Source: a virus
Length of the DNA: 34,539 nucleotides
Direction: 5' to 3' (one strand)
Virus genome (UHGV): UHGV-2132316
Position numbers and translations under genes: made by a program. Positions 1 to 21,721 of the stretch are shown here, piece by piece. The notes beneath the pieces are model-generated. The model was given only the letters and a program-made list of their open reading frames with translations, was not told the origin of the DNA and did no database searches. Numbering within the stretch: position 1 is the stretch's first letter; each line of letters opens with the position of its first letter.

Positions 1-903
1 TTATGAAAGCATAGACCGTTTACCCTCCCTGGGTACGACGGAACAGGGGTCCTGATGGATAATCACATCCGATCCCGGAAAACGCCGTAAAATAGCCTGC
101 TCTACCTGATCCGCCACCATATGTGCCTGAACCAAAGGCAGAGAGTCTTCCATTTCCAAATGAATCTGAATAAAGCGGGTCGGCCCTGACTGCCGCGTGC
201 GAAGATCGTGAGCGCCGCTAACACCCGGCCAGGAAGTCACGATATCAATAATTTCTTGCCGTTCCTCATCAGGCAATGCGCGATCCAGTAATGACTGTAC
301 CGCCTCATATCCCATGCGTAACGCGCTATATAAAATATAGATGCCGATCCCCAATGCAAACAGAGCATCGGCGCGATGCCAGCCGTACCAGGACAACCCC
401 AGCGCCAGCAGAATTGCGCCGTTCATCATAACATCAGACTGGTAATGTAGCATATCAGCCCGCACCGCCTGGCTTTGCGTCCGGCGCACCACCCAACGCT
501 GAAACGAGACAAGGATAATCGTACAAATTAGCGCCACAATTGTCACGATAACCCCGACGCCTGGATCTGTCATCGGTGTTGGAGATACCAGATGTTGAAT
601 ACCCGTCAAAAACAGGAATAGTGCCGAACCGGAGATAAACATACTTTGCGCCAGCGCCGCGAGGGACTCAGCTTTACCGTGACCAAACGAGTGATTATCG
701 TCGGCAGGTTGCAGGGAATATCGCACCACCAGTAAATTCGTCAACGACGCACCGATATCCACCAGCGAATCCACCAGCGCGGCGAGAATACTCACCGACC
801 CGGTATACCACCATGCAAAAATTTTAATCAGCAATAGCAGCGAAGCCATCGCCGTCGCAGCAATCGCCGCCCGACTGACCAGCCGTCCATAAGATTGATT
901 CAT
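1..903 (-). CDS. fieF: Host cation diffusion facilitator (ferrous iron/zinc efflux pump FieF/YiiP); true start is the ATG at 903, the track ORF carries a 14-codon upstream extension
   Basis: 300-aa product from [36 protein letters not shown]... to ...[12 protein letters not shown] recognised as FieF; multiple hydrophobic TM segments; stop TAA at 1..3. Confidence 0.93.
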
Positions 904-984
904 AAATACTCCCGCTATCAACTGACGGTAGTATAACGGAAGCAAATCATCTGCAATGCATTAAGCAGCAGGCAAATTGAGGAT

Positions 985-1011
985 AAAAAAAACCCCCACA
1001 TCATGTGGGGG
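985..1011 (-). terminator. Rho-independent terminator-like hairpin (stem cccccaca/tgtggggg, 3-nt loop) followed on the minus strand by a U8 tract; positioned to stop leftward read-through from ogr
   Basis: A8 run 985-992 and perfect 8-bp stem 993-1000/1004-1011 read directly. Confidence 0.6.
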
Positions 1012-1128
1012 AAGACAGGGATGGGGAAAAATCTCGCCCTTAACCTTATGGAACAAAAGGATTTATCCTAAACTTCGTCTACATATTGACTACACTTCGA
1101 CAAAAGTGTCCACATAACAATGATAAAG

Positions 1129-1150
1129 CCCCGCATGTTAGTGGGGTTTT
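1129..1150. other. GC hairpin (ccccgc/gtgggg with one G-T wobble) plus T4 tract immediately outside the ogr stop; candidate prophage end (attR core) or ogr terminator
   Basis: Seen in sequence at the host-phage junction; att identity cannot be proven because attL is outside the window. Confidence 0.35.
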
Positions 1151-1151
1151 A

Positions 1152-1400
1152 TCACAATGACAGGCTTAGTTGATCCCTTCCGTAGTGAGACGCCGGAAAG
1201 GCATCGTGGGGTATGAAGTCAGGCGGTAACGGCGCAATACCTGCGCGCTTTGTGACTTCCCTTTCCACGCTATTAAGCGTGGTAAATGACCGGCTACATT
1301 CCAGATTCTGGCACTGGTGATACTGCCTGATTGTCATGTTGGTCATTCTTCGGCTGGTGCGGGTGCGGGCCATAGCGCCGCAGAATGGACATCTGAACAT
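1152..1400 (-). CDS. ogr: Ogr/Delta-family zinc-finger late-gene transcription activator
   Basis: 82 aa; MFRCPFCG...YHQCQNLECSRSF shows the Cys4 pattern of P2 Ogr; located at the prophage end after D as in P2. Confidence 0.85.
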   Translation of the reverse strand: MFRCPFCGAMARTRTSRRMTNMTIRQYHQCQNLECSRSFTTLNSVEREVTKRAGIAPLPPDFIPHDAFPASHYGRDQLSLSL

Positions 1401-1438
1401 AATGATGACTCCCCGTGAGAGTTGAACTCCATTTCATT

Positions 1439-2548
1439 TTATTCAGTTTCCGCTATCCAGTCAGGAATTTTTGCTTCAAGCTCAAGCTGCGTGGTAAAAC
1501 CGCTGTTATCAATGGTGTGCTCGGCCTTTGCAATAATCCAGTCCTGATTGTCGATGTCATTTTTGAAGCCTGTCACCGTGCCATGCATTTCAGGGTAGAG
1601 TTCTGCACGTCCACGCGCCAGCGTGATGGAGAATGATGCGGCTCCGCGTTGTAGCTGCTGCCACTTTGCCGCTGCTGCGCGTCTTGCTGCCTGCTCGTTC
1701 TGATAAGTTTTGCGTAACACAAACACATTGCCTTCCGCGCCTTCCATATAATCACCTTCACGGCTGCTGCTTTTCTCCTTTTTGGGTTTTGGCGGTTTGC
1801 GGCGTTTCACGCTGACTTTTTTCTTTTTCCCGTAATTAAGATCAAGCCAGTAAGCGCGTACCCCCGTATACGCTTCGCGGTCAGCAATGCGGAACTGATG
1901 GCGATCGCCGCTGCTGCGTGTGATGGCGAACGATGGCAACGGCTGGCCCTGTGCGTTCACGCCACCGCCGGGCATGATGAATAACAGATTACCGCTTTTT
2001 ACCGTGGTGATTGCGCCCAGCATTTCCGCCATGCGCGTAAGGAAGGACATGTCGCTTTCTTCAGTCTGGTCGGCGTGGTCGATTTCGATATCCATCAGCA
2101 TTTCGCTGATTTGCGGTTTCAGGCCGTACCGATGAGCGATGGCGGATACCACACGCTCAACGGTCACATCATGCCATGACACCTCACGTTTAACGTTAAA
2201 TTCATCCCGAAAATCTGCGCTTCTGGCTGAAACAGTCAGCCTGTCCGGCGGTCCTTCGTGAGCGATTTCATCAACAATGTAAGTGCCTTTTTCTGTCAGC
2301 GGTTCTCCTTTCCAGCCAATGAGAACCGTCAGGCGCGCGCCCCGTGGCGGTAGCTGCAACTGACCATCCGCATCATCCAGCGTGATGGTGAGCTGGTCCG
2401 CCTCAAATCCCCGGTTGTCGGTCAGTGACAGGCTCATCAGGCGCTCTGCCACGCCTGACAGCGTTTTACCCTCCGCGAGAATATCAAAATCCGGCATTTT
2501 CACGGGGTCTGTGCCCTGACTGAGCAATTGCATGGTGGTGTCGGTCAT
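1439..2548 (-). CDS. D: P2 gpD-like tail protein (late tail gene D)
   Basis: Long ORF with gpD-like sequence; start chosen at ATG 2548 (MTDTTMQLL...) because of strong RBS AGGGAGGG just upstream; track ORF extends 7 codons further to 2569. Confidence 0.88.
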   Translation of the reverse strand: MTDTTMQLLSQGTDPVKMPDFDILAEGKTLSGVAERLMSLSLTDNRGFEADQLTITLDDADGQLQLPPRGARLTVLIGWKGEPLTEKGTYIVDEIAHEGPPDRLTVSARSADFRDEFNVKREVSWHDVTVERVVSAIAHRYGLKPQISEMLMDIEIDHADQTEESDMSFLTRMAEMLGAITTVKSGNLLFIMPGGGVNAQGQPLPSFAITRSSGDRHQFRIADREAYTGVRAYWLDLNYGKKKKVSVKRRKPPKPKKEKSSSREGDYMEGAEGNVFVLRKTYQNEQAARRAAAAKWQQLQRGAASFSITLARGRAELYPEMHGTVTGFKNDIDNQDWIIAKAEHTIDNSGFTTQLELEAKIPDWIAETE

Positions 2549-2704
2549 CTTTCCCTCCCTGTGCGGCATGGTCGCATGTGCGTGCGGAGGGGGTTACTGC
2601 TTTTTGTTGTCGCCGGGTCGGGAGAACGGCGCAGGGGTGAGATTACGCGCGTGGTGGGTGATGATTGTTGCCGAATCATTTAACGGATACAAGGGGCTGA
2701 AGCT
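2549..2704. promoter_or_regulatory. Divergent D / FI intergenic region; must carry the FI-operon late promoter and whatever drives D; contains TTTTGTTGT-N11-GAGAACGG (2602..2629)
   Basis: 156-bp non-coding spacer between divergent starts; element shared with the O/P divergent promoter region (21634..21661). Confidence 0.4.
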
Positions 2705-3889
2705 ATGAGTGAAACTCGTTTTCATGGTGCCCGTGTTACGGAAAATACCGACCTGGTAACAGCGATTAACGATGTTGATTCCAGCGTTATCGGTATCGTG
2801 GCAACGGCGGATGATGCGGACGCGAAGCTGTTCCCGCTGAACAAGCCCACACTGCTGACCCGCGTCAATGACGTGCTGGGAAAATGCGGAACAACGGGGA
2901 CGCTTTATCGTGCGCTTAAGGCCATCGCAGACCAGGTGAGCACAAAGGTGATCGTCGTTCGCGTGGCTGAACACAAAGAAGAAGACGGAAAGACGCAGGA
3001 TCAACTGGTTATCGGTGGTTCTGAGGATGACGGCAGCTATACGGGGATGTATGCGCTGCTTGTTGCAGAGCAGGATGAAAGCATCGGATACCGTCCGCGT
3101 ATTCTGGCCGCGCCGGAGCTGGACACGGAGGCGGTAACAAAATCCCTGTGCGTGATTGCGGGTAAACTGCGCGCGTTTGTGTATGCCACATGTCATGGTT
3201 GTAACACGATGGCTGAGGCGATTACCTACCGCCAGAAATTCAACGAACGTGAGGTGATGCTCTTATGGCCTGACTTCATCGCCTACAACCCGAAAAGTGG
3301 CAAAAACGAAACGTTCCCCGCGCCTGCTTATGCGTGCGGCCTTCGTGCGTACATTGACCATGAGCAGGGCTGGCACAAATCGCTGTCCAACGTTCCGGTT
3401 AAAAATGTGCTGGGAATGTCCAGGCATGTGTTCTGGTCGTTGCAGGCCGAAGACAGTGATGCCAACAGCCTCAATAACAAAGAAATCACGACCATTATTC
3501 GTCGCAACGGGTTCCGCTTCTGGGGCAACCGCACACCGGAAACGAACGCCTACATCTTTGAGGTGTATACCCGAACCGCACAGGTGCTGGCTGATTCAAT
3601 TGCGGAAGCGCAGTTTGAAACCATCGACAGTCCACTGACGCCTGCGAACGTGAAGGATGTTATCAGTGCCATCAGGGCAAAACTGGATTCGCTGGTTACT
3701 GCCGGGAAACTGATTGGTGCGGAGTGCTGGTATGACGTGGTGGATAACGGCACCACGAATTTACGTCAGGGACGTGTGCGTATTCGCTACAAATATACGC
3801 CCGTTCCGCCACTGGAAGACATGGAGCTTTACCAGACGTTTACTGATGAATTCTTTGGTCCCGCATTTGCGGTGCTGGGAGGTGCCTGA
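2705..3889 (+). CDS. FI: Contractile tail sheath protein (P2 gpFI-like)
   Basis: 394 aa; strong similarity to remembered P2 FI (e.g. ...TFPLNKP..., ...WPDF..., GWHKSLSNV, IRRNGFRFWGNRT, YTPVPPLE); RBS AAGGGG upstream. Confidence 0.92.
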   Translation: MSETRFHGARVTENTDLVTAINDVDSSVIGIVATADDADAKLFPLNKPTLLTRVNDVLGKCGTTGTLYRALKAIADQVSTKVIVVRVAEHKEEDGKTQDQLVIGGSEDDGSYTGMYALLVAEQDESIGYRPRILAAPELDTEAVTKSLCVIAGKLRAFVYATCHGCNTMAEAITYRQKFNEREVMLLWPDFIAYNPKSGKNETFPAPAYACGLRAYIDHEQGWHKSLSNVPVKNVLGMSRHVFWSLQAEDSDANSLNNKEITTIIRRNGFRFWGNRTPETNAYIFEVYTRTAQVLADSIAEAQFETIDSPLTPANVKDVISAIRAKLDSLVTAGKLIGAECWYDVVDNGTTNLRQGRVRIRYKYTPVPPLEDMELYQTFTDEFFGPAFAVLGGA

Positions 3890-4401
3890 TGGCTGTACCA
3901 AAACATCTTCGCTTTTTTACGTTGTTTGTGGATGGTGAAAACGAAGTGGGTAAAGTGACATCCGTCACGCCGCCCAAACTGACGCGCAAAACCGACAGCT
4001 ATCGTGGTGGTGGCATGATGGGGGCGGTAAGTATTGATCTCGGTCTGGACGACTCCGCGCTTGATGCGAGTTTTGTTATGGGGGGAGCTGTTCGTGCGCT
4101 GTTCCTTAAATATGGCGGCACGATTGACGGCACGCTGCTGCGTTTTGCGGGTGAATACTACACCGATGCAGAAAGCGATCTGTATGAAATCGAGATGCGC
4201 GGACGTGTGACGGAAATTGATATGGGGGAAGCCAAACAGGGCGAAGCCACATCACACACTTACGCTGTCAAAAACACCTACTACAAGCTGAGCGTTAACG
4301 ATCGCCCGCTGTGGGAAATCGACCTGTTGAACCACATCTACCGGAAGGACGGCAAGGACATTGTGCCTGACCGTATCCGTTCCGCGCTTGGGCTTGGCTG
4401 A
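3889..4401 (+). CDS. FII: Tail tube protein (P2 gpFII-like)
   Basis: 170 aa ORF; start overlaps the FI stop (TGATG); position and size match gpFII. Confidence 0.88.
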   Translation: MAVPKHLRFFTLFVDGENEVGKVTSVTPPKLTRKTDSYRGGGMMGAVSIDLGLDDSALDASFVMGGAVRALFLKYGGTIDGTLLRFAGEYYTDAESDLYEIEMRGRVTEIDMGEAKQGEATSHTYAVKNTYYKLSVNDRPLWEIDLLNHIYRKDGKDIVPDRIRSALGLG

Positions 4402-4456
4402 TAAGTAATATGCAGGCGGCGCAGTGCGTCGCCTCTGACTGAAAAGGAGACAACTG

Positions 4457-4831
4457 ATGAAAGACATCGATACTGAAACCCGGAATAACACCGTGGCGGA
4501 TGATGTGACGGCAGGTGAGGATATGGCTGTCGAACGTGGCGTAAAACTGACCCGACCAATTGAGCGTGGTGGCGAAAAAATCACGTATGTGGAGATCACC
4601 GGGGCTATTGAACAGGCTGGATCCCTGCGTGGTCTGTCGCTGTCTGATGTGCTGAATCTGAAAGCGGATACCATGTTCACGCTGTTGCCTCGCGTGACCT
4701 CGCCACGACTGGATGAAGTGATGATTAAAAAAATGTCGTCACGCGATTTTATTCAGTTGTGCGCTGTGGCTGTAAATTTTATGAGCGAGCCAGACTCTGG
4801 CGCGAAGAGCGTGCAGGAGACGGCGGCGTAA
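4457..4831 (+). CDS. E: Tail assembly chaperone gpE (0-frame product)
   Basis: ATG preceded by AAGGAG RBS; sits between tube and tape-measure genes; overlapping -1 frame ORF follows (E'). Confidence 0.8.
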   Translation: MKDIDTETRNNTVADDVTAGEDMAVERGVKLTRPIERGGEKITYVEITGAIEQAGSLRGLSLSDVLNLKADTMFTLLPRVTSPRLDEVMIKKMSSRDFIQLCAVAVNFMSEPDSGAKSVQETAA

Positions 4832-4995
4832 TCACCCTGGTGTGCTTTGATCACATCGAAGATCTGGTGGCAGATATCGCCGCCATTTTTAACTGGTCGC
4901 CCGCCGAAATCTTCATGATGACGCCCGGCGAAGTGGTTAGCTGGCGTGAGCGGGCGGCACTTCGCAGCGGGAATGCAGACAATGAAGACTCTTGA
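4457..4995 (+). CDS. E+E': gpE+E' fusion produced by -1 programmed ribosomal frameshift (candidate slip sites A7 run 4727..4733 or A_AAT_TTT 4774..4780)
   Basis: -1 frame is open from 4729 (after TAA 4726-4728) to 4995 and overlaps the T start; conserved G/GT-type arrangement in tailed phages. Confidence 0.6.
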
Positions 4996-7789
4996 TATCC
5001 GGGTCGCTTTCAGCGCCGTTGACAGGCTGACCCGACCTGCCGAAAACGCCCGCCGCCTGATGGGGCAGTTTGGTGACTCCATCCAGCGAACGCAGGGGGC
5101 GATCAAAAATCTCGAGCGTCAGGCGCGATCATTTGAGCGCGCCCGCGACGCTGTCAGTAAAGCGGATGCGGGCATCGTGAAAGCACGACGCCAGCTTAAC
5201 GCCCTTAATCAGTTACAACGCACGGGTACAGTGCTCAGCGAAAAACAACAAAAGCTGATGCAGCAGTTAAGCACCCGGCTTGAACGCCTGAATGAATCGC
5301 GTACACGGGAAATTCAGAAAATGCGGGAGCTTGGCGGAGAGCTGAAACGCCACGGCATTTCCCTGACAGGCAGCGATAACACCATCCAGCAGGCCATCAG
5401 ACGCACCGAACAGTACAACAACCAGCTTGAACGCGAACGGCAGGCGCTTGCGCGTGTAACGCGGGCGCGTGAGCGGTATTCGCGCGCGCAGGAAACAGCG
5501 GGAAAACTGAAAACAGGTGGTGCGCTGGCAATTGGTGCGGCAGCGGCGGGCGGCTATGCTGCCGGGCGTTTTTTGCAGCCTGCGATCGGGTTCGGGAAAG
5601 AGATGTCCCGCGTTCAGGCGCTGACGCGAATCGACCAGAACAGCCCACAGTTTAAGGCGCTGCGTGAGCAGGCGTTAAAACTTGGCTCTGAAACGCAGTT
5701 CACCGCTGGAGATGCCGCCAGTGGACAGGCATTTCTTGCAATGGCTGGCTTCACACCACAGGCCATTCAGGCTGCGCTTCCCGGTGTGCTGAGCATGGCA
5801 ACGGCTGGCGGTATGGATCTCGGCGAGACGGCGGATATTGGCTCAAACATCCTGACGCAGTTCGGCCTTTCTGCCGACCAGATGGACCGGGTCGGTGACA
5901 CGCTCACCGCAGCGTTTACCCGTACCAACACTGACCTTCGCGCACTGGGCGAAACCATGAAATATGCAGGTCCGGTGGCGGGCAAGCTGGGAATATCGCT
6001 GGAGCAGGCCGCAGCGATGGCGGGCGTGCTGGCGAATATGGGTATCAGGGGAAGTGATGCCGGGACGGCAATGCGTGCCAGCCTGGCTCGTCTGGCATCA
6101 CCGCCAAAGGCGGCAGCAGAGGCGCTGAAAGAGCTTGGTGTGGCAGTCTCTGACGCGAACGGCAAAATGCGCCCGATGGAGGATGTGCTGGCCGATCTTT
6201 ATAAAGCCACCCGCAAATACGGGGAAGTTGACCGGGTATCGTTCTTTAAGGACATTGCCGGAGAAGAGGCTTTCACATCGTTTATGGCGCTCGTTGATGC
6301 AGCGGGTGACGGTTCCTTACCTAAACTGAGAAAAGAACTTGAAGGCGCACGCGGTGAGGCTGAACGCACAGCAAAGGTTATGGCCAACAACCTTGATGGC
6401 GATCTGAAATCACTCGGCAGTGCATGGGAAGGGTTGCGCATCCGCATTGCAGATCTGATTGACGGTCCGCTGCGTTCTGTCACGCAGTGGCTCACGCGGG
6501 TGGTATCAAGGGTGACGGCGCTGGCGCAGGCCCATCCGGCACTGACGCGCCAGCTACTGATAGCAGGCGGTGCGTTGCTGGCAATGACTGCAACGATTGG
6601 CTCGTTGTCGCTGGTTATTGGCGTGCTTCACGGGAAACTGGCCACGTTACGTCTTGGTTTTTCTCTCCTGACCGGATCAATGAATGTCGTCAGGGTGCTG
6701 CCAGCACTATGGGGAATGGTAACAGGTTCCATCTCGTTGCTGGGTGGCGCTATCGGGGCGCTGTTCAGTCCGGTCGGATTGATTGTTGCCGCGTTTGTGG
6801 CTGCGGCGGTTCTCATCTGGAAATACTGGGAACCCATCAAGGCGTTTTATGCCGGGGTGTTCAGTGGGATTATGGAACGGCTGGCTCCGTTGCGCGAAAC
6901 CTTTGAACGGTTTGGTCCTGTTTTTGATGTCGTGCGCGATGGGATTATTCAGCTCTTTAACTGGTTTAAATCGCTGCTGTCACCGATGGAGTCCAGCAAG
7001 GAAACGCTGGATAAATGCACCAGTGCTGGCGAGATATTCGGTAACGTTCTTGGTGGCGCGCTACAGCTTGTTCTGACGCCTGCAAAAATGCTGCTGGATA
7101 CGCTGGCGTGGATACTTGAAAAACTCGGTGTGCTTCCGGATGAAGCGGAAAGGGCGAGAAAGAAAATCGAAGACGCACAGCGTGCGGCCATTCTTCAGGA
7201 CAAGGTTGCCTTGCTTCAGGGGGACCTGGCGAAAATCAATCCGCCGAAGCCTGTAGAAAATGGCAATGGCACCGGAGGTGATAACCCCAAAGACAATAAA
7301 CCGCTCACAGACAGCAATACTGGTACGCTGCGCAGACTCAGCAAAATTGCTGATAACACAGGTAAGCTGGTTGATGAGACGAAAAAACGCATTGGCCCCG
7401 GCGATATTGTCTTTAAGAACCTGCCCCGCGCACTTGCTGTTCGTGGGGAGTGGCAGGAGCGGAAGATTGCGCAGGTCAGTAAGCCTGCCCCCGCAATTAA
7501 TATCACACCCGTGGTCCCGGCTCCGCTGCCTCCGGCGCTGGTCCCTGTTGTTGCGGCCAGCTCCCGCCCGGTGGCGGAGGCCATACGATCTCCAGTGGCA
7601 TCAGTTCCTGTAACTTCCCGTAACCGGGAGCCTGTTGCCTCAGGATTTGGCGGTGAAATTCATGTTCATCTGCATAACGTCGTTACACAGAATCCCCGCG
7701 AACTGGCGAAACTGGTCGGTGAAATGGTCAGGGCAGAAATGGAACGGCGCGCCCGTGCCGGGCGTGGCAGTTTTTACGATAAAGATTGA
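4946..7789 (+). CDS. T: Tail tape-measure protein (gpT-like); start uncertain (GTG 4946, ATG 4973 or ATG 4982)
   Basis: 947-aa ORF with coiled-coil rich N-terminus, Gly/Ala-rich and hydrophobic central segments typical of tape-measure proteins; position after E/E'. Confidence 0.9.
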   Translation: MSGRHFAAGMQTMKTLDIRVAFSAVDRLTRPAENARRLMGQFGDSIQRTQGAIKNLERQARSFERARDAVSKADAGIVKARRQLNALNQLQRTGTVLSEKQQKLMQQLSTRLERLNESRTREIQKMRELGGELKRHGISLTGSDNTIQQAIRRTEQYNNQLERERQALARVTRARERYSRAQETAGKLKTGGALAIGAAAAGGYAAGRFLQPAIGFGKEMSRVQALTRIDQNSPQFKALREQALKLGSETQFTAGDAASGQAFLAMAGFTPQAIQAALPGVLSMATAGGMDLGETADIGSNILTQFGLSADQMDRVGDTLTAAFTRTNTDLRALGETMKYAGPVAGKLGISLEQAAAMAGVLANMGIRGSDAGTAMRASLARLASPPKAAAEALKELGVAVSDANGKMRPMEDVLADLYKATRKYGEVDRVSFFKDIAGEEAFTSFMALVDAAGDGSLPKLRKELEGARGEAERTAKVMANNLDGDLKSLGSAWEGLRIRIADLIDGPLRSVTQWLTRVVSRVTALAQAHPALTRQLLIAGGALLAMTATIGSLSLVIGVLHGKLATLRLGFSLLTGSMNVVRVLPALWGMVTGSISLLGGAIGALFSPVGLIVAAFVAAAVLIWKYWEPIKAFYAGVFSGIMERLAPLRETFERFGPVFDVVRDGIIQLFNWFKSLLSPMESSKETLDKCTSAGEIFGNVLGGALQLVLTPAKMLLDTLAWILEKLGVLPDEAERARKKIEDAQRAAILQDKVALLQGDLAKINPPKPVENGNGTGGDNPKDNKPLTDSNTGTLRRLSKIADNTGKLVDETKKRIGPGDIVFKNLPRALAVRGEWQERKIAQVSKPAPAINITPVVPAPLPPALVPVVAASSRPVAEAIRSPVASVPVTSRNREPVASGFGGEIHVHLHNVVTQNPRELAKLVGEMVRAEMERRARAGRGSFYDKD

Positions 7790-7801
7790 GGAGTCATGGC
7801 T

Positions 7802-8290
7802 ATGATGATGATCTACGGCATGTTTGTTTTTGAGCTGCGCACGCTGCCGCATCAGCAGTTACAGCAAAACAAAAGCTGGCGGCATGTGAAAAATGAACGC
7901 GTTAACCGTTCAGCAAGCTGGCAGTATATCGGTGCAGGTGATGATCGCATCGTTCTTTCTGGTGTGCTTTATCCTGAAATTACAGGTGGCGAAGTGTCGC
8001 TGTCGCTGCTGACCACGCAGGCGTATACAGGACGACCCTGGCCTTTGATTGATGGCGTCGGGCAGATTTACGGCATGTATGTCCTGACCGGAACGAATAC
8101 GACCCGTTCCGAGTTTGATCGCTACGGTAAGGCGAAAAAGATAGAATTTTCACTGACCCTTGAACGCTGTGATGAGGATTTGCGGGAGCGCCTGCAATCC
8201 TCATCGTTCAGTGATATGCTGTCCGGCTTCAAAGATAAGGTGACATCATCTCTTAACAGCGCGGCCAGTTCAGTTAAAGGGCTGTTCTGA
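7802..8290 (+). CDS. U: Tail protein gpU-like
   Basis: Start placed at ATG 7802 (GAGGAG RBS 8 nt upstream; track start 7796 is only 2 nt from the RBS); P2-U-like sequence. Confidence 0.85.
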   Translation: MMMIYGMFVFELRTLPHQQLQQNKSWRHVKNERVNRSASWQYIGAGDDRIVLSGVLYPEITGGEVSLSLLTTQAYTGRPWPLIDGVGQIYGMYVLTGTNTTRSEFDRYGKAKKIEFSLTLERCDEDLRERLQSSSFSDMLSGFKDKVTSSLNSAASSVKGLF

Positions 8291-8296
8291 TTTAAC

Positions 8297-8337
8297 ACAA
8301 AAACCGCTAATGGTCAGATTAGCGGTTATTTTGTTTT
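8297..8337. terminator. Bidirectional rho-independent terminator between convergent U and invertase genes (stem accgctaat/attagcggt, loop ggtcag, A-run on one side and T-run on the other)
   Basis: Perfect 9-bp stem read directly; the invertase stop codon lies within the 3' arm. Confidence 0.7.
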
Positions 8338-8913
8338 CTGACTCTTCTCTATTGTTCCGCTTGATTCTCCTGCGGGGTGGTAACGATAAATCGTCGATGT
8401 ACCAATGCCGTAAATTATTGCCAGTTGTTTTCTGTCGTGACCGTTTTTAATCAGCCTTGCTATTTGCTCATGCTGTTCTTTTGTCAGCTTCGGTCGACGT
8501 CCGCCTGTGCGCCCCCGTGCGCGCGCTGCCGCCAGTCCGGCCAGTGTACGTTCAACAATTAATTCACGTTCCATTTCAGCCAGGGCACCCATCACGTGGA
8601 AGAAAAAACGCCCCATTGGAGAAGATGTATCTATGCTGTCGGTCAGACTGCGAAAATTAATCCCTCGCTCCCGTAGTTCTCCGACGAGAGAAATCAGATG
8701 TTTCATGCTTCGCCCAAGGCGATCCAGTTTCCAGACAACCAGCGTGTCACCTTTTTGAAGCCGCTTTAAAGCGCGTTTTAATCCCGGTCGGTCTGTCTTT
8801 GTCCCGCTTAATTTATCTTCAAATATTTGTTCACATCCTGCACAAACAAGAGCGTTTCGTTGCAGGTCTGTATTCTGGTCATTTGTTGATACCCTTACAT
8901 AACCAATCAGCAC
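8326..8913 (-). CDS. Serine-recombinase DNA invertase of the Hin/Gin/Cin/Pin family; start at GTG 8913 (GGGAG RBS), track ORF starts at an upstream TTG
   Basis: LIGYVRVSTNDQNTDLQRNAL...GDTLVVWKLDRLGRSMKHL... near-identical in the catalytic domain to remembered Pin; C-terminal HTH region. Confidence 0.92.
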   Translation of the reverse strand: MLIGYVRVSTNDQNTDLQRNALVCAGCEQIFEDKLSGTKTDRPGLKRALKRLQKGDTLVVWKLDRLGRSMKHLISLVGELRERGINFRSLTDSIDTSSPMGRFFFHVMGALAEMERELIVERTLAGLAAARARGRTGGRRPKLTKEQHEQIARLIKNGHDRKQLAIIYGIGTSTIYRYHPAGESSGTIEKSQKTK

Positions 8914-8967
8914 ACTGAATCTCCCGTCCAAAAGCGCAAATCATGCCATGCAGGCCGGAAACGGCCA

Positions 8968-8993
8968 TTATCTAAAACCTCGGTTTACAGGAA
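8968..8993. other. gix/hix-like 26-bp recombination site (left): TTATCTAAAACC-TC-GGTTTACAGGAA
   Basis: Matches the Gin/Hin/Cin/Pin crossover-site consensus; contains the in-frame stop TAA (8973-8975) that closes the silent cassette frame on the outside. Confidence 0.8.
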
Positions 8994-9980
8994 ACGGTAA
9001 ACAGGGCTGGTAACGCCGTGCAAAAAAATGGCGATACCTTGTCCGGTGGGCTTAATTTTGAAAACGACTCAATCCTTGCCTGGATTCGAAATACTGACTG
9101 GGCAAAGATTGGTTTTAAAAATGATGCCGATAGCGATACTGATTCATACATGTGGTTTGAAACAGGCGACAACGGCAATGAATATTTCAAATGGAGAAGT
9201 AAACAAAGCACCACAACAAAAGACCTGATGAATCTTAAATGGGATGCTTTGTCTGTTCTTGTTAAAGCCCTTTTCAGCAGTGAAGTAAAAATATCGACAG
9301 TCAATGCACTGAGGATATTTAATTCATCTTTTGGTGCCATTTTTCGCCGTTCTGAAGAATGCCTGCATATCATCCCTACACGAGAGAATGAGGGAGAAAA
9401 TGGTGATATAGGGCCATTACGCCCCTTTACGATTAACCTTAGAACTGGTCGGATAAGCATGGGGCATGGTCTTGATGTTACAGGGGATATATTTGCAAAC
9501 CGTTTTGCAATTAACAGTAGTACCGGCATGTGGATTCATATGCGTGACCAGAATGTTATTTGGGGACGCAATGCGGTATCCACCGATGGTGCGCAGGCAT
9601 TACTTCGTCAGGACCACGCTGATCGCAAATTTATGATTGGTGGACTGGGGAATAAGCAATTTGGCATCTACATGATTAATAACTCAAGGACAGCCAATGG
9701 TACCGATGGTCAGGCGTACATGGATAATAACGGGAACTGGCTTTGCGGCTCGCAAGTTATTCCCGGCAACTATGGCAATTTTGATTCACGTTATGTGAGA
9801 GATGTCCGACTTGGCACACGTGTTGTTCAGACTATGCAAAAAGGCGTGATGTATGAGAAATCAGGTCATGCAATTACGGGGCTTGGCATTGTCGGTGAAG
9901 TTGATGGCGATGATCCGGCAGTATTCAGACCAATACAAAAATACATCAATGGCACATGGTATAACGTCGCACAGGTGTAA
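8976..9980 (+). CDS. Silent alternative tail-fibre C-terminal (receptor-binding) cassette; no own start, becomes fused to the constant part of H after inversion
   Basis: Frame is open from 8976 through the gix site (NLGLQETVNRAGNAVQKNGDTLSGG...); ends ...YINGTWYNVAQV, parallel to the end of H (...QYCINGTWYNAGSI). Confidence 0.8.
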   Translation, partial: NLGLQETVNRAGNAVQKNGDTLSGGLNFENDSILAWIRNTDWAKIGFKNDADSDTDSYMWFETGDNGNEYFKWRSKQSTTTKDLMNLKWDALSVLVKALFSSEVKISTVNALRIFNSSFGAIFRRSEECLHIIPTRENEGENGDIGPLRPFTINLRTGRISMGHGLDVTGDIFANRFAINSSTGMWIHMRDQNVIWGRNAVSTDGAQALLRQDHADRKFMIGGLGNKQFGIYMINNSRTANGTDGQAYMDNNGNWLCGSQVIPGNYGNFDSRYVRDVRLGTRVVQTMQKGVMYEKSGHAITGLGIVGEVDGDDPAVFRPIQKYINGTWYNVAQV

Positions 9981-9983
9981 TTT

Positions 9984-10511
9984 ATGCAGCATTTAAAAAA
10001 TATTAAGTCTGGAAATCCAAAAACAAAAGAACAATATCAGCTAACAAAGAATTTTGATGTTATCTGGTTATGGTCCGAAGACGGAAAAAACTGGTATGAG
10101 GAAGTGAAAAACTTTCAGCCAGACACAATAAAGATTGTTTACGATGCAAATAATATTATTGTCGCCATCACCAAAGATGCCTCCACGCTTAACCCTGAAG
10201 GTTATAGCGTCGTTGAGGTTCCTGATATTACAGCTAATCGTCGTGCTGATGATTCCGGTAAGTGGATGTTTAAGGACGGAGCTGTGGTTAAACGGATTTA
10301 TACGGCAGACGAGCAACAACAACAGGCCGAATCACAAAAGGCCGCGTTACTTTCCGAAGCAGAAAACGTTATTCAGCCACTGGAACGCGCTGTCAGGCTG
10401 AATATGGCGACGGATGAGGAACGCGCACGACTGGAGTCATGGGAACGCTATAGTGTTCTGGTCAGCCGTGTGGATACGGCAAATCCTGAATGGCCACAAA
10501 AGCCTGAATAA
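9984..10511 (+). CDS. Alternative tail-fibre assembly chaperone (Tfa, gpG/Mu U'-like), silent orientation
   Basis: 175 aa; N-terminus [24 protein letters not shown]... nearly identical to the active gpG N-terminus while the C-terminus differs, as expected for cognate chaperones. Confidence 0.85.
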
Positions 10512-10515
10512 AAAT

Positions 10516-10536
10516 TAAGGCCCGATAGCGGGCCTT
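10516..10536. terminator. Bidirectional terminator hairpin (aaggcccg-atag-cgggcctt) between the two convergent chaperone genes
   Basis: Perfect 8-bp stem read directly, flanked by A/T runs. Confidence 0.6.
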
Positions 10537-10539
10537 GTT

Positions 10540-11073
10540 TCATTCTGGTTGTTCTGGAAACGTTACTGGCAGGCTGGAGGTGTCTGTGGATTCGACCTTC
10601 TGCGCATAGAGCATCCACTCGGTTAATTTTTGTTTATTCTCGTCGGAAATGATACCCAGCCGTAGCTGTGAGTCCCATAGCTGGGTTTTATCCCTGACAA
10701 GTTGCAACAGGCTTTGCTTTTCATTCTCTGCCTGCTGCCTCTGTTCCTCCTCGGTATAAGTTCGCTTTATCACTACGCCATCTTTGAACATCCATTTACC
10801 CGAAATATCAGCCCGGCGATTTGCTGTAATATCAGGTAATTCAACGACGCTTGCGCCTTCCGGATTAATTGCTGAAACATCCTTTTCAATACAAATAATA
10901 ACGCCGTTATGGTCATAGACCATTTTCAAAGTGTCTGGCTGGAAATTCTTTTGTTCCTCATACCAGTTTTTTCCATCATCTGAATAAAGCCATTTGATGT
11001 TAAATTGCTTTGTTAGCTGGTATTGCTCTTTTGTTTTAGGGTTGCCAGCAGTAATATTTTTTAAGTGCATCAT
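10540..11073 (-). CDS. G: Tail-fibre assembly chaperone gpG (currently expressed orientation)
   Basis: 177 aa directly downstream of H; Tfa-family sequence. Confidence 0.85.
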   Translation of the reverse strand: MMHLKNITAGNPKTKEQYQLTKQFNIKWLYSDDGKNWYEEQKNFQPDTLKMVYDHNGVIICIEKDVSAINPEGASVVELPDITANRRADISGKWMFKDGVVIKRTYTEEEQRQQAENEKQSLLQLVRDKTQLWDSQLRLGIISDENKQKLTEWMLYAQKVESTDTSSLPVTFPEQPE

Positions 11074-11075
11074 AA

Positions 11076-13310
11076 TTAAATACTCCCCGCGTTATACCAC
11101 GTTCCATTAATGCAATACTGAATTGGCCTTGCCTGAGTTGTATCAATTAATTCATCACGGTTTCCGTTAACTGAACCAGTAACGACATAACCTGACCTGT
11201 CAGACCAGCCAGGACCATTCCATGTCTGAACAGATGACAGACCGCCAAGGCGAATACCTGTAATAAACCTTGAGTTACATTCTGCCTGCGTATATGCACC
11301 AACATCTCCCGCAGAGGGTTTGCGTGTTGTGGTGTAAAACTCTGACCAGTTAGCTTCAAAGCCATAACCATCACGCGCTGAACGATAAAAGATACCGCCA
11401 TTTCTGTAATTCACGCGGAACTGTACAGCAGGGCAACTCCCCGCATTCATATTAAAGTGGAGGATTAATGTCGATGCGCCACTGATATCTGCATCATAAA
11501 CGCCGCTATTCCAGTTCCAGCCAACAGCTTTATCATTTGCGACCCTGCGTCCTGTTTGCCCTAAAGCAAATGCAGGCTGCTGGTTTTTCGTGTTGTAGTC
11601 TCGTCGCCAGCCAGGAGCGTAAGCATCACCATGATTAATATAAGTGAATTGAGCGTTAGTGATTCCGCCACCGCTGGACGTGCTCGGCGTGGTAACGCGT
11701 ATGGTCATTGCGCCGCGGGTGCCAATAACTTCCACCACAGCACCTGCAAGACAAATATTTCCGCAACCTGTATCTGTAATGACCTTATTATTTGCATAAG
11801 CCCATGAGCCTTTGCACATCCAGTAAGGATGGTTAAATGCCCCCTGACTCTCCAGCCACGAAATGAATTGTGCGGTTGTCCAGACCTGACTATCGCCACC
11901 AATATTCAGCCATGCGCTATATGCGCGGCAGGCCCCAATATTTTTGGTGAAGGTATCTTTCCCCGGAATATCTGCGCCGTTCTGGTTTTTCTGTAATGCG
12001 CCAGAAGCCTGATTTACCGTTTCCTGTAAACCGAGGTATTCGATAACAGCGGCAACGGTCGATTTCGCAAGAATATCCCGCCCGACTTTTGTCAGGGTTG
12101 CCAGGCTGGCGACATCATTCCCCGTAAAATACGGAAACTTGTCTGCCGCAGTAGCAAGCCCGGCCAGCGCCGTCAGGGTGGCATCTTTCGGTTGCTTACC
12201 CGCAAGCGCTTTAGTCATGGTGGTCGCAAAATTCGGGTCGTTTCCCAGCGCCGCCGCTAACTCGTTCAGCGTATTCAGTGCGTCAGGTGACGAATCTACA
12301 AGGGCGGCAATCGCAGCCATAACGAAAGCCGTGCTTGCGATTTGGGTATTATTCGTTCCCTGTCGCGCAGTTGGCGTTGTTGGCGTTCCGGTCAACGCAG
12401 GACTGTTTAAGGGCGCTTTCTTGTTCGTTTCATCCATTACCGCCTTAACCGCTTTCGATGTCGCGGCCAGTGTTTCAGACGTGCTGTTGGTGGCACTACT
12501 GAGCTGGACTATCCCTTTTTGTGCCGTCGTGGCGTCCTGAGCGGTATATTTTGCGTTAGCAAGGTCATACGCGGCCTTTACTGCTTTCGGCGTTGCAGCC
12601 TGCGTTTCAGACGTGCTGTTGGTGGCGCTACTGAGCTGGACAAGGCCTTTTCGTGCCGTCGTGGCGTCCTGAGCGGTATATTTTCCGTTAGCTAGGTCAT
12701 ACGCGGCCTTAACCGCTTTCGGCGTTGCAGCCTGCGTTTCAGACACGCTGTTAGTGGCGCTACTGAGTTGAACAAAGCCTTTTGCGGTCAGCGAGGCGTC
12801 CGGGTGACGTCGTGACTGTTCATGCTCTTTCAGTTTGTCATCCACGTAATCCACTGTGGCCATCACCATGGTGTTATCCACGGTAAGCGCCACGGTGGCC
12901 GTGCTGGATACGGTCAGAATGGTGCGAAATGTTTGTGCACGTCCGGACCCTTCGGCAACGGTTGGTTTGTAACTTTCGGCAGTATTGCCCACCGCGATTA
13001 AATCGCCGTGCTCATCAAATACACCAATTTCCCGGATCCAGAATCCGCCCGTTTCAGGAGGAATAACCAGCTCCGCAATAATGCGGTTCTGATGTGTTGC
13101 GTCCAGGATGACGCGATTAACAGTGTGTCGCCACACCTCATGCACCAGACGGGTCTGCTTACTGTCTGGTGTGGGCAACGTGCCGCCACCGTCGCCCACG
13201 GCCATATGAGTCAGGCGGACAGGCTTACCATCTGGCGCGGCTGCCTGAGCTAATTTTTTGGCACCTGTATCGGTGATAACGGTTTTAAATTTTCGTGTTG
13301 TGGTACTCAT
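11076..13310 (-). CDS. H: Tail fibre protein gpH; N-terminal ~425 aa constant region, C-terminal ~320 aa exchangeable by inversion
   Basis: 744 aa; N-terminal half matches remembered P2 H (..RRHPDASLTAKGF.., LNSPALTGTPTTPTA..); gix site inside the gene. Confidence 0.92.
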   Translation of the reverse strand: MSTTTRKFKTVITDTGAKKLAQAAAPDGKPVRLTHMAVGDGGGTLPTPDSKQTRLVHEVWRHTVNRVILDATHQNRIIAELVIPPETGGFWIREIGVFDEHGDLIAVGNTAESYKPTVAEGSGRAQTFRTILTVSSTATVALTVDNTMVMATVDYVDDKLKEHEQSRRHPDASLTAKGFVQLSSATNSVSETQAATPKAVKAAYDLANGKYTAQDATTARKGLVQLSSATNSTSETQAATPKAVKAAYDLANAKYTAQDATTAQKGIVQLSSATNSTSETLAATSKAVKAVMDETNKKAPLNSPALTGTPTTPTARQGTNNTQIASTAFVMAAIAALVDSSPDALNTLNELAAALGNDPNFATTMTKALAGKQPKDATLTALAGLATAADKFPYFTGNDVASLATLTKVGRDILAKSTVAAVIEYLGLQETVNQASGALQKNQNGADIPGKDTFTKNIGACRAYSAWLNIGGDSQVWTTAQFISWLESQGAFNHPYWMCKGSWAYANNKVITDTGCGNICLAGAVVEVIGTRGAMTIRVTTPSTSSGGGITNAQFTYINHGDAYAPGWRRDYNTKNQQPAFALGQTGRRVANDKAVGWNWNSGVYDADISGASTLILHFNMNAGSCPAVQFRVNYRNGGIFYRSARDGYGFEANWSEFYTTTRKPSAGDVGAYTQAECNSRFITGIRLGGLSSVQTWNGPGWSDRSGYVVTGSVNGNRDELIDTTQARPIQYCINGTWYNAGSI
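12021..12046. other. gix/hix-like 26-bp recombination site (right), inverted copy inside gene H: TTCCTGTAAACC-GA-GGTATTCGATAA
   Basis: 24/26 identical to the reverse complement of the left site; central dinucleotides complementary (TC vs GA); encodes ...IEYLGLQE... in H. Confidence 0.8.
12430..12800 (-). repeat. Tandem 132-bp (44-codon) direct repeats, about 2.8 copies, inside H (peptide unit ...VQLSSATNSTSETQAATPKAVKAAYDLANxKYTAQDATTAxKG)
   Basis: Period measured between 'gtttcagac' occurrences at 12472, 12604 and 12736. Confidence 0.8.
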
Positions 13311-14735: not shown

Positions 14736-15086
14736 TTACTCCCTTAGCGTGATGGTTAATTCAACATTCTGCATGGTCTGCATGACAGTGCCCGACAGCG
14801 TCACCCCGGCGCGGCCTCCCGCTTTCCAGACAACGTCGATGGCATCCAGGGCAATGCGGGGTTCCCATCGTGTCAGCGCAATCACGGCAGCACTCATGCA
14901 TTGCAGACGCGTGGTGTTATTCATGGGTTCGTCAATCAAATCAGGCACAAGGCTGCCATATTCCCGTCGCATAACCCGGCTTGCCAGCGGGGTGGTCAGG
15001 ATATCCCTGACTGACTGTTTCAGGTGCTCCATATCGTTCAGGTTTCCCGTCCCGTCCGGATTCATTCCTGTGTAGCGGGTTGTCAC
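14736..15086 (-). CDS. W: Baseplate protein gpW-like
   Basis: 116 aa; MTTRYTGMN...RVMRREYGSL... like P2 W. Confidence 0.85.
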   Translation of the reverse strand: MTTRYTGMNPDGTGNLNDMEHLKQSVRDILTTPLASRVMRREYGSLVPDLIDEPMNNTTRLQCMSAAVIALTRWEPRIALDAIDVVWKAGGRAGVTLSGTVMQTMQNVELTITLRE

Positions 15087-15664
15087 TGCGGGCCTCCTGT
15101 CGAATCGCTGCCGCCTTTCACGCCACCGTGTTTATGCGTATGCACTGTGATGCCGTTTGAGGTGAAGTTGCCGCCGCTGTGCGTGATATTGCCGCTCATC
15201 TTTCCTCCTTTTGTGACGTCAAGCGTCGCCGTTCTCAGAAGGTTTGTGCATTCCACGACGGGCGTATCCAGTTTCACGCTGACGGATGCCTGTAAAGTGG
15301 CCGTTTTCATGCCGCTGGCGCTCAGTGCGCCTGCGTCCGCGTCGTAGCGGAACACCGCGCCATCCGGCGCGCTGACCACGATTTCTTTCAGGCTTTTGCC
15401 GGGTGCCGGACTGGCATCACTCCACAGGCTGCCAATTATCATGGCGGTTTCCGGGTTGCCGCCAATGCAGGCAATTACCACCTGTTCGCCTGGTGATGGC
15501 GGCAGCCACACATTGAAGGCTCCCGCGCGCGTGGTGTTCCAGCGCAACCATCCTGTTTCCAGTTCGCCGCTGCGAACGCGCACGCGCCAGGACTTCTCAT
15601 CAATTTCAGAGATGATCCCGGTGCGGATGATATTGCTCAGCAGTCGCATGAGTTCTGCGCTCAC
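15083..15664 (-). CDS. V: Baseplate spike/assembly protein gpV-like
   Basis: 193 aa; ..IRTGII.E.D...GEQV.I...GG....A...GS....HTHKH.. pattern as in P2 V. Confidence 0.85.
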   Translation of the reverse strand: MSAELMRLLSNIIRTGIISEIDEKSWRVRVRSGELETGWLRWNTTRAGAFNVWLPPSPGEQVVIACIGGNPETAMIIGSLWSDASPAPGKSLKEIVVSAPDGAVFRYDADAGALSASGMKTATLQASVSVKLDTPVVECTNLLRTATLDVTKGGKMSGNITHSGGNFTSNGITVHTHKHGGVKGGSDSTGGPQ

Positions 15665-16305
15665 CGTACAGCCTCCGCAATCCGGCCCAGCATCGTGTTA
15701 TAAATCAGGCGCTCATCTGCCTGGCTGATACCCAGCAGCTCACGTACCGGGTAATCGGTGAAAATGCCCGGCGCAACCTGATCGCGCTCACCGAACTGAT
15801 GAACGCGGGCAATACGTGCGGACACGCCGCTGTAACCCACCGTCACACCGGAAGCATCTGCACGGGCTTTCAGGTAGCGGGCGGTGCGCAGTTTTACGAA
15901 CATGGGGACGCGCTTTGTGCTGTCCTGGTTGATGCGCCGGGTGCGTATTTCCAGAAAACGGTCGATGTCATCCCGGTAAAACGTGCGGATATTGTTTTTA
16001 TCCTCATCCCACCCGGTAATGGTTCGCCCGTATTTCCCCGTGTCGTGATGCCAGTTTTTCAGCGTGCGTGCTTCGTTATTCCAGATAAAGCGAATGCGCT
16101 CCTGTATCCGGGTTACGCGGCGTCTGCGTGGTGTCCACGCGGTCCCGTCCGGCGCTTTCTGTGACCGGATACGCGCCTGCTGGGCGCGGCGTAAATCCTG
16201 TGCCAGCTTTCTGGCGATGTTATTGATGGCCTGCTGATTCAGGCTGTCGCGGATGGCCTCAAAGGTTTCATCCACGCGGGTGAATGCCTTATCCATCGCT
16301 TTCAC
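15661..16305 (-). CDS. S: Tail completion / virion morphogenesis protein gpS-like (longer than I remember P2 S to be)
   Basis: 214 aa; PDGTAWTPR and HQFGERD motifs resemble the gpS family; synteny between R and V. Confidence 0.7.
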   Translation of the reverse strand: MKAMDKAFTRVDETFEAIRDSLNQQAINNIARKLAQDLRRAQQARIRSQKAPDGTAWTPRRRRVTRIQERIRFIWNNEARTLKNWHHDTGKYGRTITGWDEDKNNIRTFYRDDIDRFLEIRTRRINQDSTKRVPMFVKLRTARYLKARADASGVTVGYSGVSARIARVHQFGERDQVAPGIFTDYPVRELLGISQADERLIYNTMLGRIAEAVR

Positions 16306-17033: not shown

Positions 17034-17301
17034 CTTTTGCAATATCGTTGCGTAGCTGTTCACGTCTGGCCTCTCCGTCCTGATTTCGCTGTTGATTTTC
17101 CACGCGGAGTTGCGCCAGCACCTGCTGCATATCCTGTACCCCGGCGCTGATGATATTCAGGGTGTCGGCGGTACGTTTCAGGGCGCTGGCCTGCGCTTCG
17201 TTTCTGGCGTTCTCCCGGCCCAGCGACCACGACAGACGCATGGATGTTCCCCATGCGGCAATCAGAAGGAAAGCGACGCCCAGCGTGGGCCAGAGCTTCA
17301 T
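16894..17301 (-). CDS. lysB: i-spanin (LysB/Rz-like)
   Basis: Start at MKLWPTLGVAFLLIAAWG (N-terminal TM) followed by a charged coiled-coil region; track ORF has a 48-codon upstream extension overlapping the endolysin. Confidence 0.7.
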   Translation of the reverse strand: MKLWPTLGVAFLLIAAWGTSMRLSWSLGRENARNEAQASALKRTADTLNIISAGVQDMQQVLAQLRVENQQRNQDGEARREQLRNDIAKDECAHALPDARFTDRLRRHAERATASAVSPAYTADADHTGNASPLP

Positions 17302-20730: not shown

Positions 20731-21567
20731 TCAGAAGTCAGCCAGCTGGTCGGAGGCTGCGCCCGTTGCGGTGAAGCGGTTCTGCGGATCGCCGTCCTGC
20801 GTGCGCAGTTTTTCCTTCAGTGCTGTCAGCTCTGTGGTCAGTGACGTGATTTTCTGGCGGTCCTGCTGATGGCGGGTTTCCAGCACATTAAAACGGTCGA
20901 TAATGTCGGCCTGTGACGTTGCGACGCCTTCCACCGCTTCCTGAATACGGGAGAAACTGGCGTCATCCGCTTTGCGGCCACGACCAATAATCCCCATTAC
21001 GCGGTTAAACCACTGGGTGCCTTCTTCCTGGCGTTGTTCTGCCATTTCGATGATTTCAGACTCGATGGCTTCGGAAATGAGCGGTGCTTCACCCTGGACA
21101 CTGTTGAACGTCATCACCGCCTGACGTTGCTGTGCCGTGAATTTCAGGCGCTCAGTGCCCAGGCTTGCCGGGGTGTCGGTCATCGCCAGCCCGACCAGAT
21201 AGGCGCGCCCGTTAACGGAGAACTGCGGGTGCAGTTCGATACTGGAATAGATTTTCTTGCCGTCCGCGACAAGCTGCTTCATGCGCTCGGTCGGTTCGAT
21301 TTCTGCATACAGCGCAGTACGTCCGGCCAGCGGACCTTCCGTAATGTCTTCCGTACTCAGTGCGGTGACATCGCCCATTGCGGAAAATTCGCTTGACGGG
21401 CATGGCGAGAGATAGTGCTCAACGTTCACGCGGGCAGCGTAAACATCCGGGTTGAAGTTCTCGGCGGCTTCACGCAGATGCACCGGACTGATTTCACGGC
21501 CATCAACAGTTGATCCGGAGACAGCCACGCGAAACTTTTTGCGGGATGTCTTTTTTTCATTAGCCAT
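20731..21567 (-). CDS. O: Capsid scaffolding protein gpO-like
   Basis: Start at MANEKKTSRKKFRV... (AGAGGGG RBS); ...YLVGLAMTDTPASLGTE... like P2 O. Confidence 0.85.
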   Translation of the reverse strand: MANEKKTSRKKFRVAVSGSTVDGREISPVHLREAAENFNPDVYAARVNVEHYLSPCPSSEFSAMGDVTALSTEDITEGPLAGRTALYAEIEPTERMKQLVADGKKIYSSIELHPQFSVNGRAYLVGLAMTDTPASLGTERLKFTAQQRQAVMTFNSVQGEAPLISEAIESEIIEMAEQRQEEGTQWFNRVMGIIGRGRKADDASFSRIQEAVEGVATSQADIIDRFNVLETRHQQDRQKITSLTTELTALKEKLRTQDGDPQNRFTATGAASDQLADF

Positions 21568-21721
21568 AGTTTTTGCCCCTCTGACTGGTTCTTCAGTCAT
21601 GATGGCAAAGCGTAACAGGCTGATACAAAGGGCTTTTGTTGTAAGAAAACGGCCAGAACAGGGGGTTAAGGAGAACGGTTTCGCGCGCGGGTAATCTTCC
21701 TGTAATTACTCAGGGGGAGCA
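21568..21721. promoter_or_regulatory. Divergent late-promoter region between O and P; contains TTTTGTTGT-N11-CAGAACAG (21634..21661)
   Basis: 154-bp spacer between divergent capsid and terminase operons; shares an element with the D/FI intergenic region. Confidence 0.5.

Follow-up and report, generated by a model that had tools for sequence, protein, structure and literature searches.

Inverted FI-U tail gene block of a P88-like prophage and a putative bidirectional late promoter in the D/FI spacer

The viral genome UHGV-2132316, a stretch of 34,539 nucleotides that is referred to here at its full length as the window, harbored a P2-type tail gene block (FI-FII-E-T-U) on the plus strand, and the baseplate hub gene D and the late-gene activator gene ogr on the minus strand, with D divergent from FI across a short spacer. 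The observed gene order, its distribution and fixity, and the observed conservation and geometry of motifs in the spacer are best explained as a whole (with a probability of about 0.8) by an ancestral inversion of the block that became fixed, and by one Ogr site in the spacer that would serve both the FI promoter (PF) and a new D promoter (PD). The inverted layout is, with near certainty, the normal and lineage-typical organization of a large P2-like clade. An earlier note on the window had treated the block as an anomaly; this view is refuted, because close relatives have the same arrangement as their normal organization.

Distribution and origin of the inverted layout

Window bases 1-3000 were 100% identical to Escherichia coli strain 81009 (NZ_CP021179). 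Over window positions 1100-9000, of which 87-96% was covered, phages P88, P884B11, Shae_phiSM, 520873, 503458, and 500465-2 each matched in one collinear piece at 93-97% nucleotide identity. The D protein had 97-98% amino acid identity to D of the P88 group and 49% to P2 gpD, and window proteins shared 42-49% identity with their P2 counterparts. The single-piece collinear matches, together with gene order, assign the window to a P88-like prophage (Xuanwuvirus, Peduoviridae). Its open reading frames (ORFs) have the same order as the annotated genes of P88 and Shae_phiSM, namely D on the minus strand, FI, FII, E, T, and U on the plus strand, and then an invertase on the minus strand. A divergent D/FI pair was also annotated in Klebsiella phage 3LV2017 (Reginaelenavirus), Salmonella phage SEN5 (Senquatrovirus), and Enterobacter phage phiT5282H (Novemvirus), and the inverted layout occurred in infectious phages of four Peduoviridae genera. 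Since public annotated records of Xuanwuvirus, Novemvirus, Reginaelenavirus, and Senquatrovirus share it, the layout itself is already known in the databases. A description of the inversion or of a PD promoter was not found in the literature, including the papers on P88, SEN4/5, and PhiSM. The canonical co-directional order FI-FII-E-T-U-D-ogr was found in Kapieceevirus ST512-KPC3phi13.2 and in P2.

Of 5426 complete E. coli genomes, 1358 had the D/FI junction (window 2300-3000) in one piece, and in almost all of these the identity was at least 95%. A synthetic canonical junction, in which the 3' end of U was joined to the 5' end of D, was absent as a single piece from all 1412 genomes that carried these genes among the 5426 searched. 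The inverted arrangement is fixed and does not switch. A species survey used an alignment of D proteins as the query against one genome per GTDB species, and FI, FII, T, U, and ogr were mapped onto the resulting 80 loci. FI was divergent from D in 59 of these loci, all with a D identity of 61-98%, and the remaining 21 had the canonical layout and a D identity of 47-54%. The hosts of inverted loci included Salmonella, Klebsiella, Enterobacter, Citrobacter, Kosakonia, Serratia, Pantoea, Erwinia, Brenneria, Pectobacterium, Edwardsiella, Xenorhabdus, Photorhabdus, Providencia, Morganella, Yersinia, Hafnia, and others. In a neighbor-joining tree of D proteins, a single branch parted 61 inverted from 23 canonical loci. 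Locus L009 (NZ_JBQPOM010000071.1, "Vagococcus sp. WN89Y") encoded a D protein with 97% identity, yet the assembly is labeled as a Firmicute; it is probably contaminated or mislabeled.

Because the D tree has one inverted/canonical split, the pattern is explained, on sequence grounds, by a single ancient in-place inversion that was inherited by the clade. FI-FII-E/E'-T-U and PF would have been inverted once, in the ancestor of a large Enterobacterales P2-like clade that includes Xuanwuvirus, Novemvirus, Reginaelenavirus, Senquatrovirus, and many prophages. In comparison with P2, D and ogr are unchanged in orientation and still lie between the tail genes and att; H-G and the other late genes have stayed the same as well. 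Only the segment from PF and FI to U is flipped in place; therefore, one breakpoint would lie immediately ahead of the PF activator site and the other at the junction of U and D. The canonical U/D junction is an overlapping stop and start: U of P2 ends at 22791, where D begins, and the overlap is 4 nt in Kapieceevirus. D of the inverted clade is preceded by a Shine-Dalgarno (SD) sequence of its own, and about 25 residues at its N-terminus vary and contain many indels, as is likewise the case in canonical D proteins. D would have gained this strong SD in place of the overlapping, and presumably translationally coupled, U-D junction of P2.

The earlier note had left room for a lineage-specific organization, a genuine large inversion that was possibly mediated by an invertase, or an assembly error. 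A lineage-specific organization that arose from a genuine ancient inversion held, and the other elements did not. Misassembly of a block that is canonical in the real genome is virtually excluded by the junction counts. Repeat-bounded inversions can be misassembled in principle, but this block has no flanking repeats and nothing specific was found in favor of such an error; the 1358 complete E. coli genomes share the identical junction with phage genomes that were sequenced independently, and none of the 5426 has the canonical one. A recent or still active flip, in which the Gin-like invertase would invert FI-U like a tail-fiber segment, is also extremely improbable, although the invertase gene adjoins the block across a terminator. 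The sole gix-like cores of the window (8975-8986 and 12028-12039) lie around the tail-fiber segment, and a search for gix/hix-type cores (AAACC-NN-GGTTT) found none in 2549-2704 or 8291-8337. Inverted repeats across the block junctions (24-31-nt matches at 71-77%) were at chance level and were rejected as recombination sites. Furthermore, SEN5, 3LV2017, and phiT5282H are inverted without an adjacent invertase, the D tree is cleanly bipartite, and a single orientation occurred among the 1412 E. coli genomes. FI-U was rejected as a serine-invertase segment, as neither recombination sites at its ends nor both orientations (1358 versus 0) were found. The Gin-like invertase is assigned, from the position of the cores, to the tail-fiber switch and not to the FI-U inversion. 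That the prophage is defective since D became uncoupled from the F operon is very unlikely. Nothing specific to the window speaks for it, all ORFs of the block are intact with family-level Pfam matches, and phages of the same layout (P88, PhiSM, SEN4/5) are inducible, produce particles, and cause host lysis. Lysis of new hosts was described for the inducible phage P88 (PMC5285337), PhiSM has been called a fully functional temperate phage (PMC6456863), and SEN4 and SEN5 were obtained as active isolates (PMC5261728).

The Ogr-type dyad and mirrored -10 hexamers in the D/FI spacer

P2-type Ogr-dependent late promoters contain a partial dyad, TGT-N12-ACA, that is centered about 55 bp upstream of the transcription start, and transcription from them depends on Ogr and on the alpha subunit of RNA polymerase. 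This consensus and the four Ogr-dependent promoters have been summarized previously (PMC3931495). The D/FI spacer of the window contained an Ogr-type dyad of the form TGT-N12-AGA (2608-2625, center 2616.5) within the longer motif TTTTGTTGT-N12-AGAAC (2602-2627). This motif, with 14 specified bases, occurred exactly twice in the window against a chance expectation of 0.01, and its second copy (21634-21659, dyad center 21648.5) was located in the divergent O/P spacer. The earlier note had described an N11 element shared by the two regions. The shared element is TTTTGTTGT-N12-AGAAC; the octamer GAGAACGG stands at N11 spacing in the D/FI spacer only and about 28 nt past TTTTGTTGT in the O/P spacer. 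The same note had reported that the spacer lacks an Ogr dyad. This is literally true, as no exact TGT-N12-ACA is found in the D/FI spacer, but it is misleading, because TGT-N12-AGA occupies the position of the TGT-N12-ACA of relatives. In an alignment of spacers from four genera, the perfect TGT-N12-ACA of 3LV2017 and SEN5 falls on the site of the window, and the PF and PO sites of P2 are imperfect too (TGT-N12-CCA). TGT-N12-A(C/G)A was found at the dyad position in 59 of 64 spacers, and the dyad was kept while N12 varied freely across 58 distinct spacers. Exact TGT-N12-ACA matches elsewhere in the window (24038, 24777, and 31149) were rejected, as none is upstream of late genes.

A position weight matrix (PWM) of the dyad was built from 41 distinct sites of relatives, with the window and near-identical relatives left out of the training set. 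The D/FI site of the window scored 25.8 bits and the O/P site, which was not in the training set, scored 17.7 bits; the maxima of shuffled sequences had a mean of 11.8 ± 2.7 bits. The phage also encodes a cognate activator, an Ogr_Delta protein (1152-1400). Further late-promoter dyads, such as an equivalent of PV, were sought with the same matrix, and the best extra matches (10154 and 17207) were rejected as they were at the level of shuffle maxima. The latter lies in a lysB-like spanin gene, where GTCGCTGGGCCGGGAGAACG (17207-17234, minus strand) is identical to the core of the D/FI site at 18 of 20 positions, with TGG in place of TGT. With a PWM score of 12.8, which is at chance level, the match may reflect a degenerate late promoter inside the gene or a coincidence.

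When the 58 distinct spacers were aligned on the dyad with no gaps allowed and NAnnAT hexamers were counted at each offset, a -10-like hexamer was found on the FI side at +43.5 to +48.5 bp from the dyad center in 57 of 58 spacers. On the D side, NAnnAT was present at the exact mirror position (43.5-48.5 bp) in 43 of 58. Other offsets (-12 to +12) had this hexamer in at most 5 of 58 spacers, and in at most 4 on the D side. In 15 canonical PF regions, including that of P2, the dyad and the FI-side -10 were conserved and the opposite side was without any conservation. The D start codon with its SD, in the 46 spacers where it could be placed, was 62.5-79.5 bp from the dyad center, and 38 of these fell at 67.5-71.5 bp. 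A consensus scan found no consensus sigma-70 promoter in the D/FI spacer of the window; on both sides, a -10-like hexamer (GATGAT and GACCAT) stands without a consensus -35. The predicted -10 of PF is GATGAT (2660-2665, plus strand), with a predicted start near 2672 and a 32-nt leader, and its spacing agrees with that of PF in P2. That of the D promoter is GACCAT (2568-2573, minus strand), with a predicted start near 2561 and a 13-nt leader, CAGGGAGGGAAAG, before the ATG. The -55 position of the dyad is deduced from these hexamers, because the starts are known by prediction only. An alternating CGCGCG tract between the dyad and the D-side -10 was also conserved across genera (-36.5 to -30.5 from the dyad center). 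Such tracts are found in the window at 2576-2590, 2645-2653, and 21681-21689, and they also stand beside the FI and P -10 elements.

A promoter for D is needed within the spacer, as the earlier note had argued, because read-through from H-G and the invertase would first meet a bidirectional terminator and then cross 5.6 kb of FI-U in antisense. The P2 record assigns a single activator site to pO and pP, and each of the two starts is 55.5 bp from the center of this site. When this geometry is applied to the conserved dyad and the mirrored -10 hexamers, it is on balance probable that one Ogr site drives a bidirectional PD/PF late promoter for FI-U and D-ogr. We infer that Ogr binds this site, that transcription starts on both sides of it, and that D depends on Ogr; functional support for PD comes by analogy only, from PP/PO of P2. 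The inversion would bring the Ogr-binding site of PF, with its dyad symmetry, immediately upstream of D, and with a -10 at the mirror position a single site centered at 2616/2617 would activate both PF and the new PD. PF would transcribe FI to U and stop at the terminator at 8302-8327. PD, with its -10 at 2573-2568, would transcribe D to ogr from a short SD-containing leader, and this unit would keep the late co-transcription of ogr with the F operon.

Several observations weigh against this model. Both starts are predicted from geometry only, and the predicted D leader is only about 13 nt long and begins at the SD. The dyad of the window reads AGA and not ACA in its second half, and one outlier among the shuffled sequences reached 23.9 bits. 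The strict D-side NAnnAT was missing in 15 of 58 relatives, of which 8 have GATCCT, and the spacer sequences are phylogenetically related, so that the counts overstate independence. An alternative accepts the lineage-typical inversion but has D transcribed from a spacer promoter that is independent of Ogr or regulated in some other way, or from within the 5' end of FI. The imperfect dyad, the very short leader, and the lack of the strict hexamer in about a quarter of relatives speak for such a promoter. It is nevertheless unlikely, because the register-specific mirrored -10 is kept across genera and absent from canonical lineages, and the spacer has no consensus sigma-70 promoter. Moreover, P2 expresses D, a structural late protein, from PF, and PP/PO of P2 sets a precedent for a shared site.

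Gene content of the block and its flanks

Genes were called from a six-frame ORF list and Pfam scans of the window proteins, both of which bear out the earlier assignment of FI-FII-E-T-U to the plus strand and of D and ogr to the minus strand. GC skew flips sign at the borders of the FI-U block, as is expected of a strand switch. The D gene (baseplate hub or late control D; 1439-2548, minus strand, 369 amino acids, Pfam Phage_GPD) has a longest ORF that extends to 2569. The ATG at 2548, preceded by the SD GGGAGGG (2553-2559), corresponds to the annotated start of P88 and agrees with the strong ribosome-binding site noted before. Since the D ATG was set at 2548, the divergent D/FI spacer, the putative bidirectional late promoter region, spans 2549-2704 and 156 bp, the size given earlier. 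FI (tail sheath, 2705-3889, plus strand) matched Phage_sheath_1, Gp18_domIII_N, and Phage_sheath_1C, and FII (tail tube, 3889-4401, plus strand) matched Phage_tube (2.1e-45). The tail assembly chaperones E and E' (4457-4995, with E at 4457-4831, plus strand) were identified by a weak match to Phage_TAC_7 and by the P88 annotation. In the three-frame translation, the E' frame is entered by a -1 shift at A AAA AAA (a run of seven A) near 4727-4733. The tape measure gene T (about 4946-7789, plus strand; PhageMin_Tail, 2.3e-58, and P88 annotation) probably has its true start at an ATG near 4972-4976, and U (tail protein, 7796-8290, plus strand) matched Phage_P2_GpU (1.5e-38). Between U and the invertase, a hairpin with a 10-bp stem (8302-8327) is regarded as a bidirectional intrinsic terminator because of T-runs on both strands, in agreement with the earlier reading.

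Downstream of D, ogr (1152-1400, minus strand) encodes a late-gene activator with an Ogr/Delta zinc finger (Pfam Ogr_Delta, 3.4e-17, 62.5 bits). It starts 38 bp downstream of D, and a sigma-70-like promoter candidate for it, CTGACT-17-TAAAAT (1436-1464, minus strand), lies at the 3' end of D and is a consensus match only. Homology to P88-group phages ends at the D stop codon. The Ogr protein of the window had about 90% amino acid identity to Novemvirus-type Ogr of Enterobacter, Pantoea, and Erwinia prophages and 48% to that of P88, and the right end of the prophage (window 1100-1445) is mosaic, with ogr of the Novemvirus type and not the P88 type. The prophage is inserted next to fieF, which is located at the left end of the window. 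The fieF-ogr-D junction was found in 3 of the 5426 complete E. coli genomes and thus marks a rare insertion site.

On the other side of the block, the Gin-like serine invertase (8326-8931, minus strand, Pfam Resolvase and HTH_7) had 91-96% nucleotide identity to gin of Mu and D108. The two gix-like cores (AAACCTCGGTTT and AAACCGAGGTAT) are found inside 61-nt inverted arms (8968-9028 and 11986-12046). The 3-kb segment between them (about 8980-12034) carries alternative H C-termini and tfa genes on opposite strands. The U-invertase junction (window 7950-8650) was contiguous in only 621 E. coli genomes. The DNA downstream of U is variable, and about 1000 other E. coli genomes, including O157:H7 strains, matched the U half only.

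Implications and comparison with known systems

P2 is not a template for all "P2-like" prophages, as about a quarter of complete E. coli genomes have the P88-type layout. Pipelines and readers that expect FI-FII-E-T-U-D-ogr on one strand will therefore misflag this layout as a rearrangement or an assembly error. The conserved mirror geometry of the promoters points to a way in which an essential late gene could remain under Ogr control when the operon was split. The evidence leans slightly toward an inversion that was tolerated, and then fixed in the clade, since a dyad-symmetric activator site fires both ways, with PD/PF arising by promoter capture. If true, this would be a clear natural example of a promoter captured by inversion, of which no description was found in the literature, and the positive-feedback path of Ogr would be shorter (1.4 kb for PD-D-ogr versus about 6.6 kb). 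The putative capture of the PF activator site by D is the only element of this account that is even moderately novel.

Among known phages, P88 and other Xuanwuvirus members have the same strand layout and the same D/FI spacer motifs as the window, but another ogr allele and other DNA downstream of D. The tail-fiber segment of the window, with its gix-like cores and gin-like invertase, is of the kind of the Mu G segment with Gin (P1 Cin and Salmonella Hin). In contrast, the ends of the FI-U block lack recombination sites, and the block occurs in one orientation only. The F operon of P2 (PF-FI-FII-E-E'-T-U-D, followed by ogr) agrees with the window in its set of genes and their internal order, in an Ogr-type dyad located about 83-88 bp ahead of the FI ATG, and in the position of ogr directly after D. 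It differs in that PF-FI...U of the window is inverted in place, D is divergent from FI, and D has its own SD and a putative promoter of its own. P2 ogr has its own annotated promoter between D and ogr, comparable to the candidate of the window, and shares a terminator with the F operon.

The remaining late genes also differ from P2, where a terminator, orf30, and PV are located between S and V. In the window (15083-16305), S (15661-16305) and V (15083-15664) overlap without an intergenic gap; because the two are contiguous, a separate PV may not exist, and the late genes from O to G may form one long transcription unit. The O ORF was called from 21600. An SD, GAGGGG, precedes the ATG at 21567, which is the likely start of O, 81.5 bp from the O/P dyad center; the N-terminus encoded from this start, MANEKKTSRKKF, resembles gpO. 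The closest parallel to the D/FI spacer is PP/PO of P2. The pairing of D with FI is absent from P2, and the D/FI promoter of the window is a predicted one. In both cases, however, divergent late genes flank a lone dyad, and the start on each side is about 55.5 bp away (annotated in P2 and predicted in the window), and the window's own O/P spacer carries the TTTTGTTGT-N12-AGAAC motif too.

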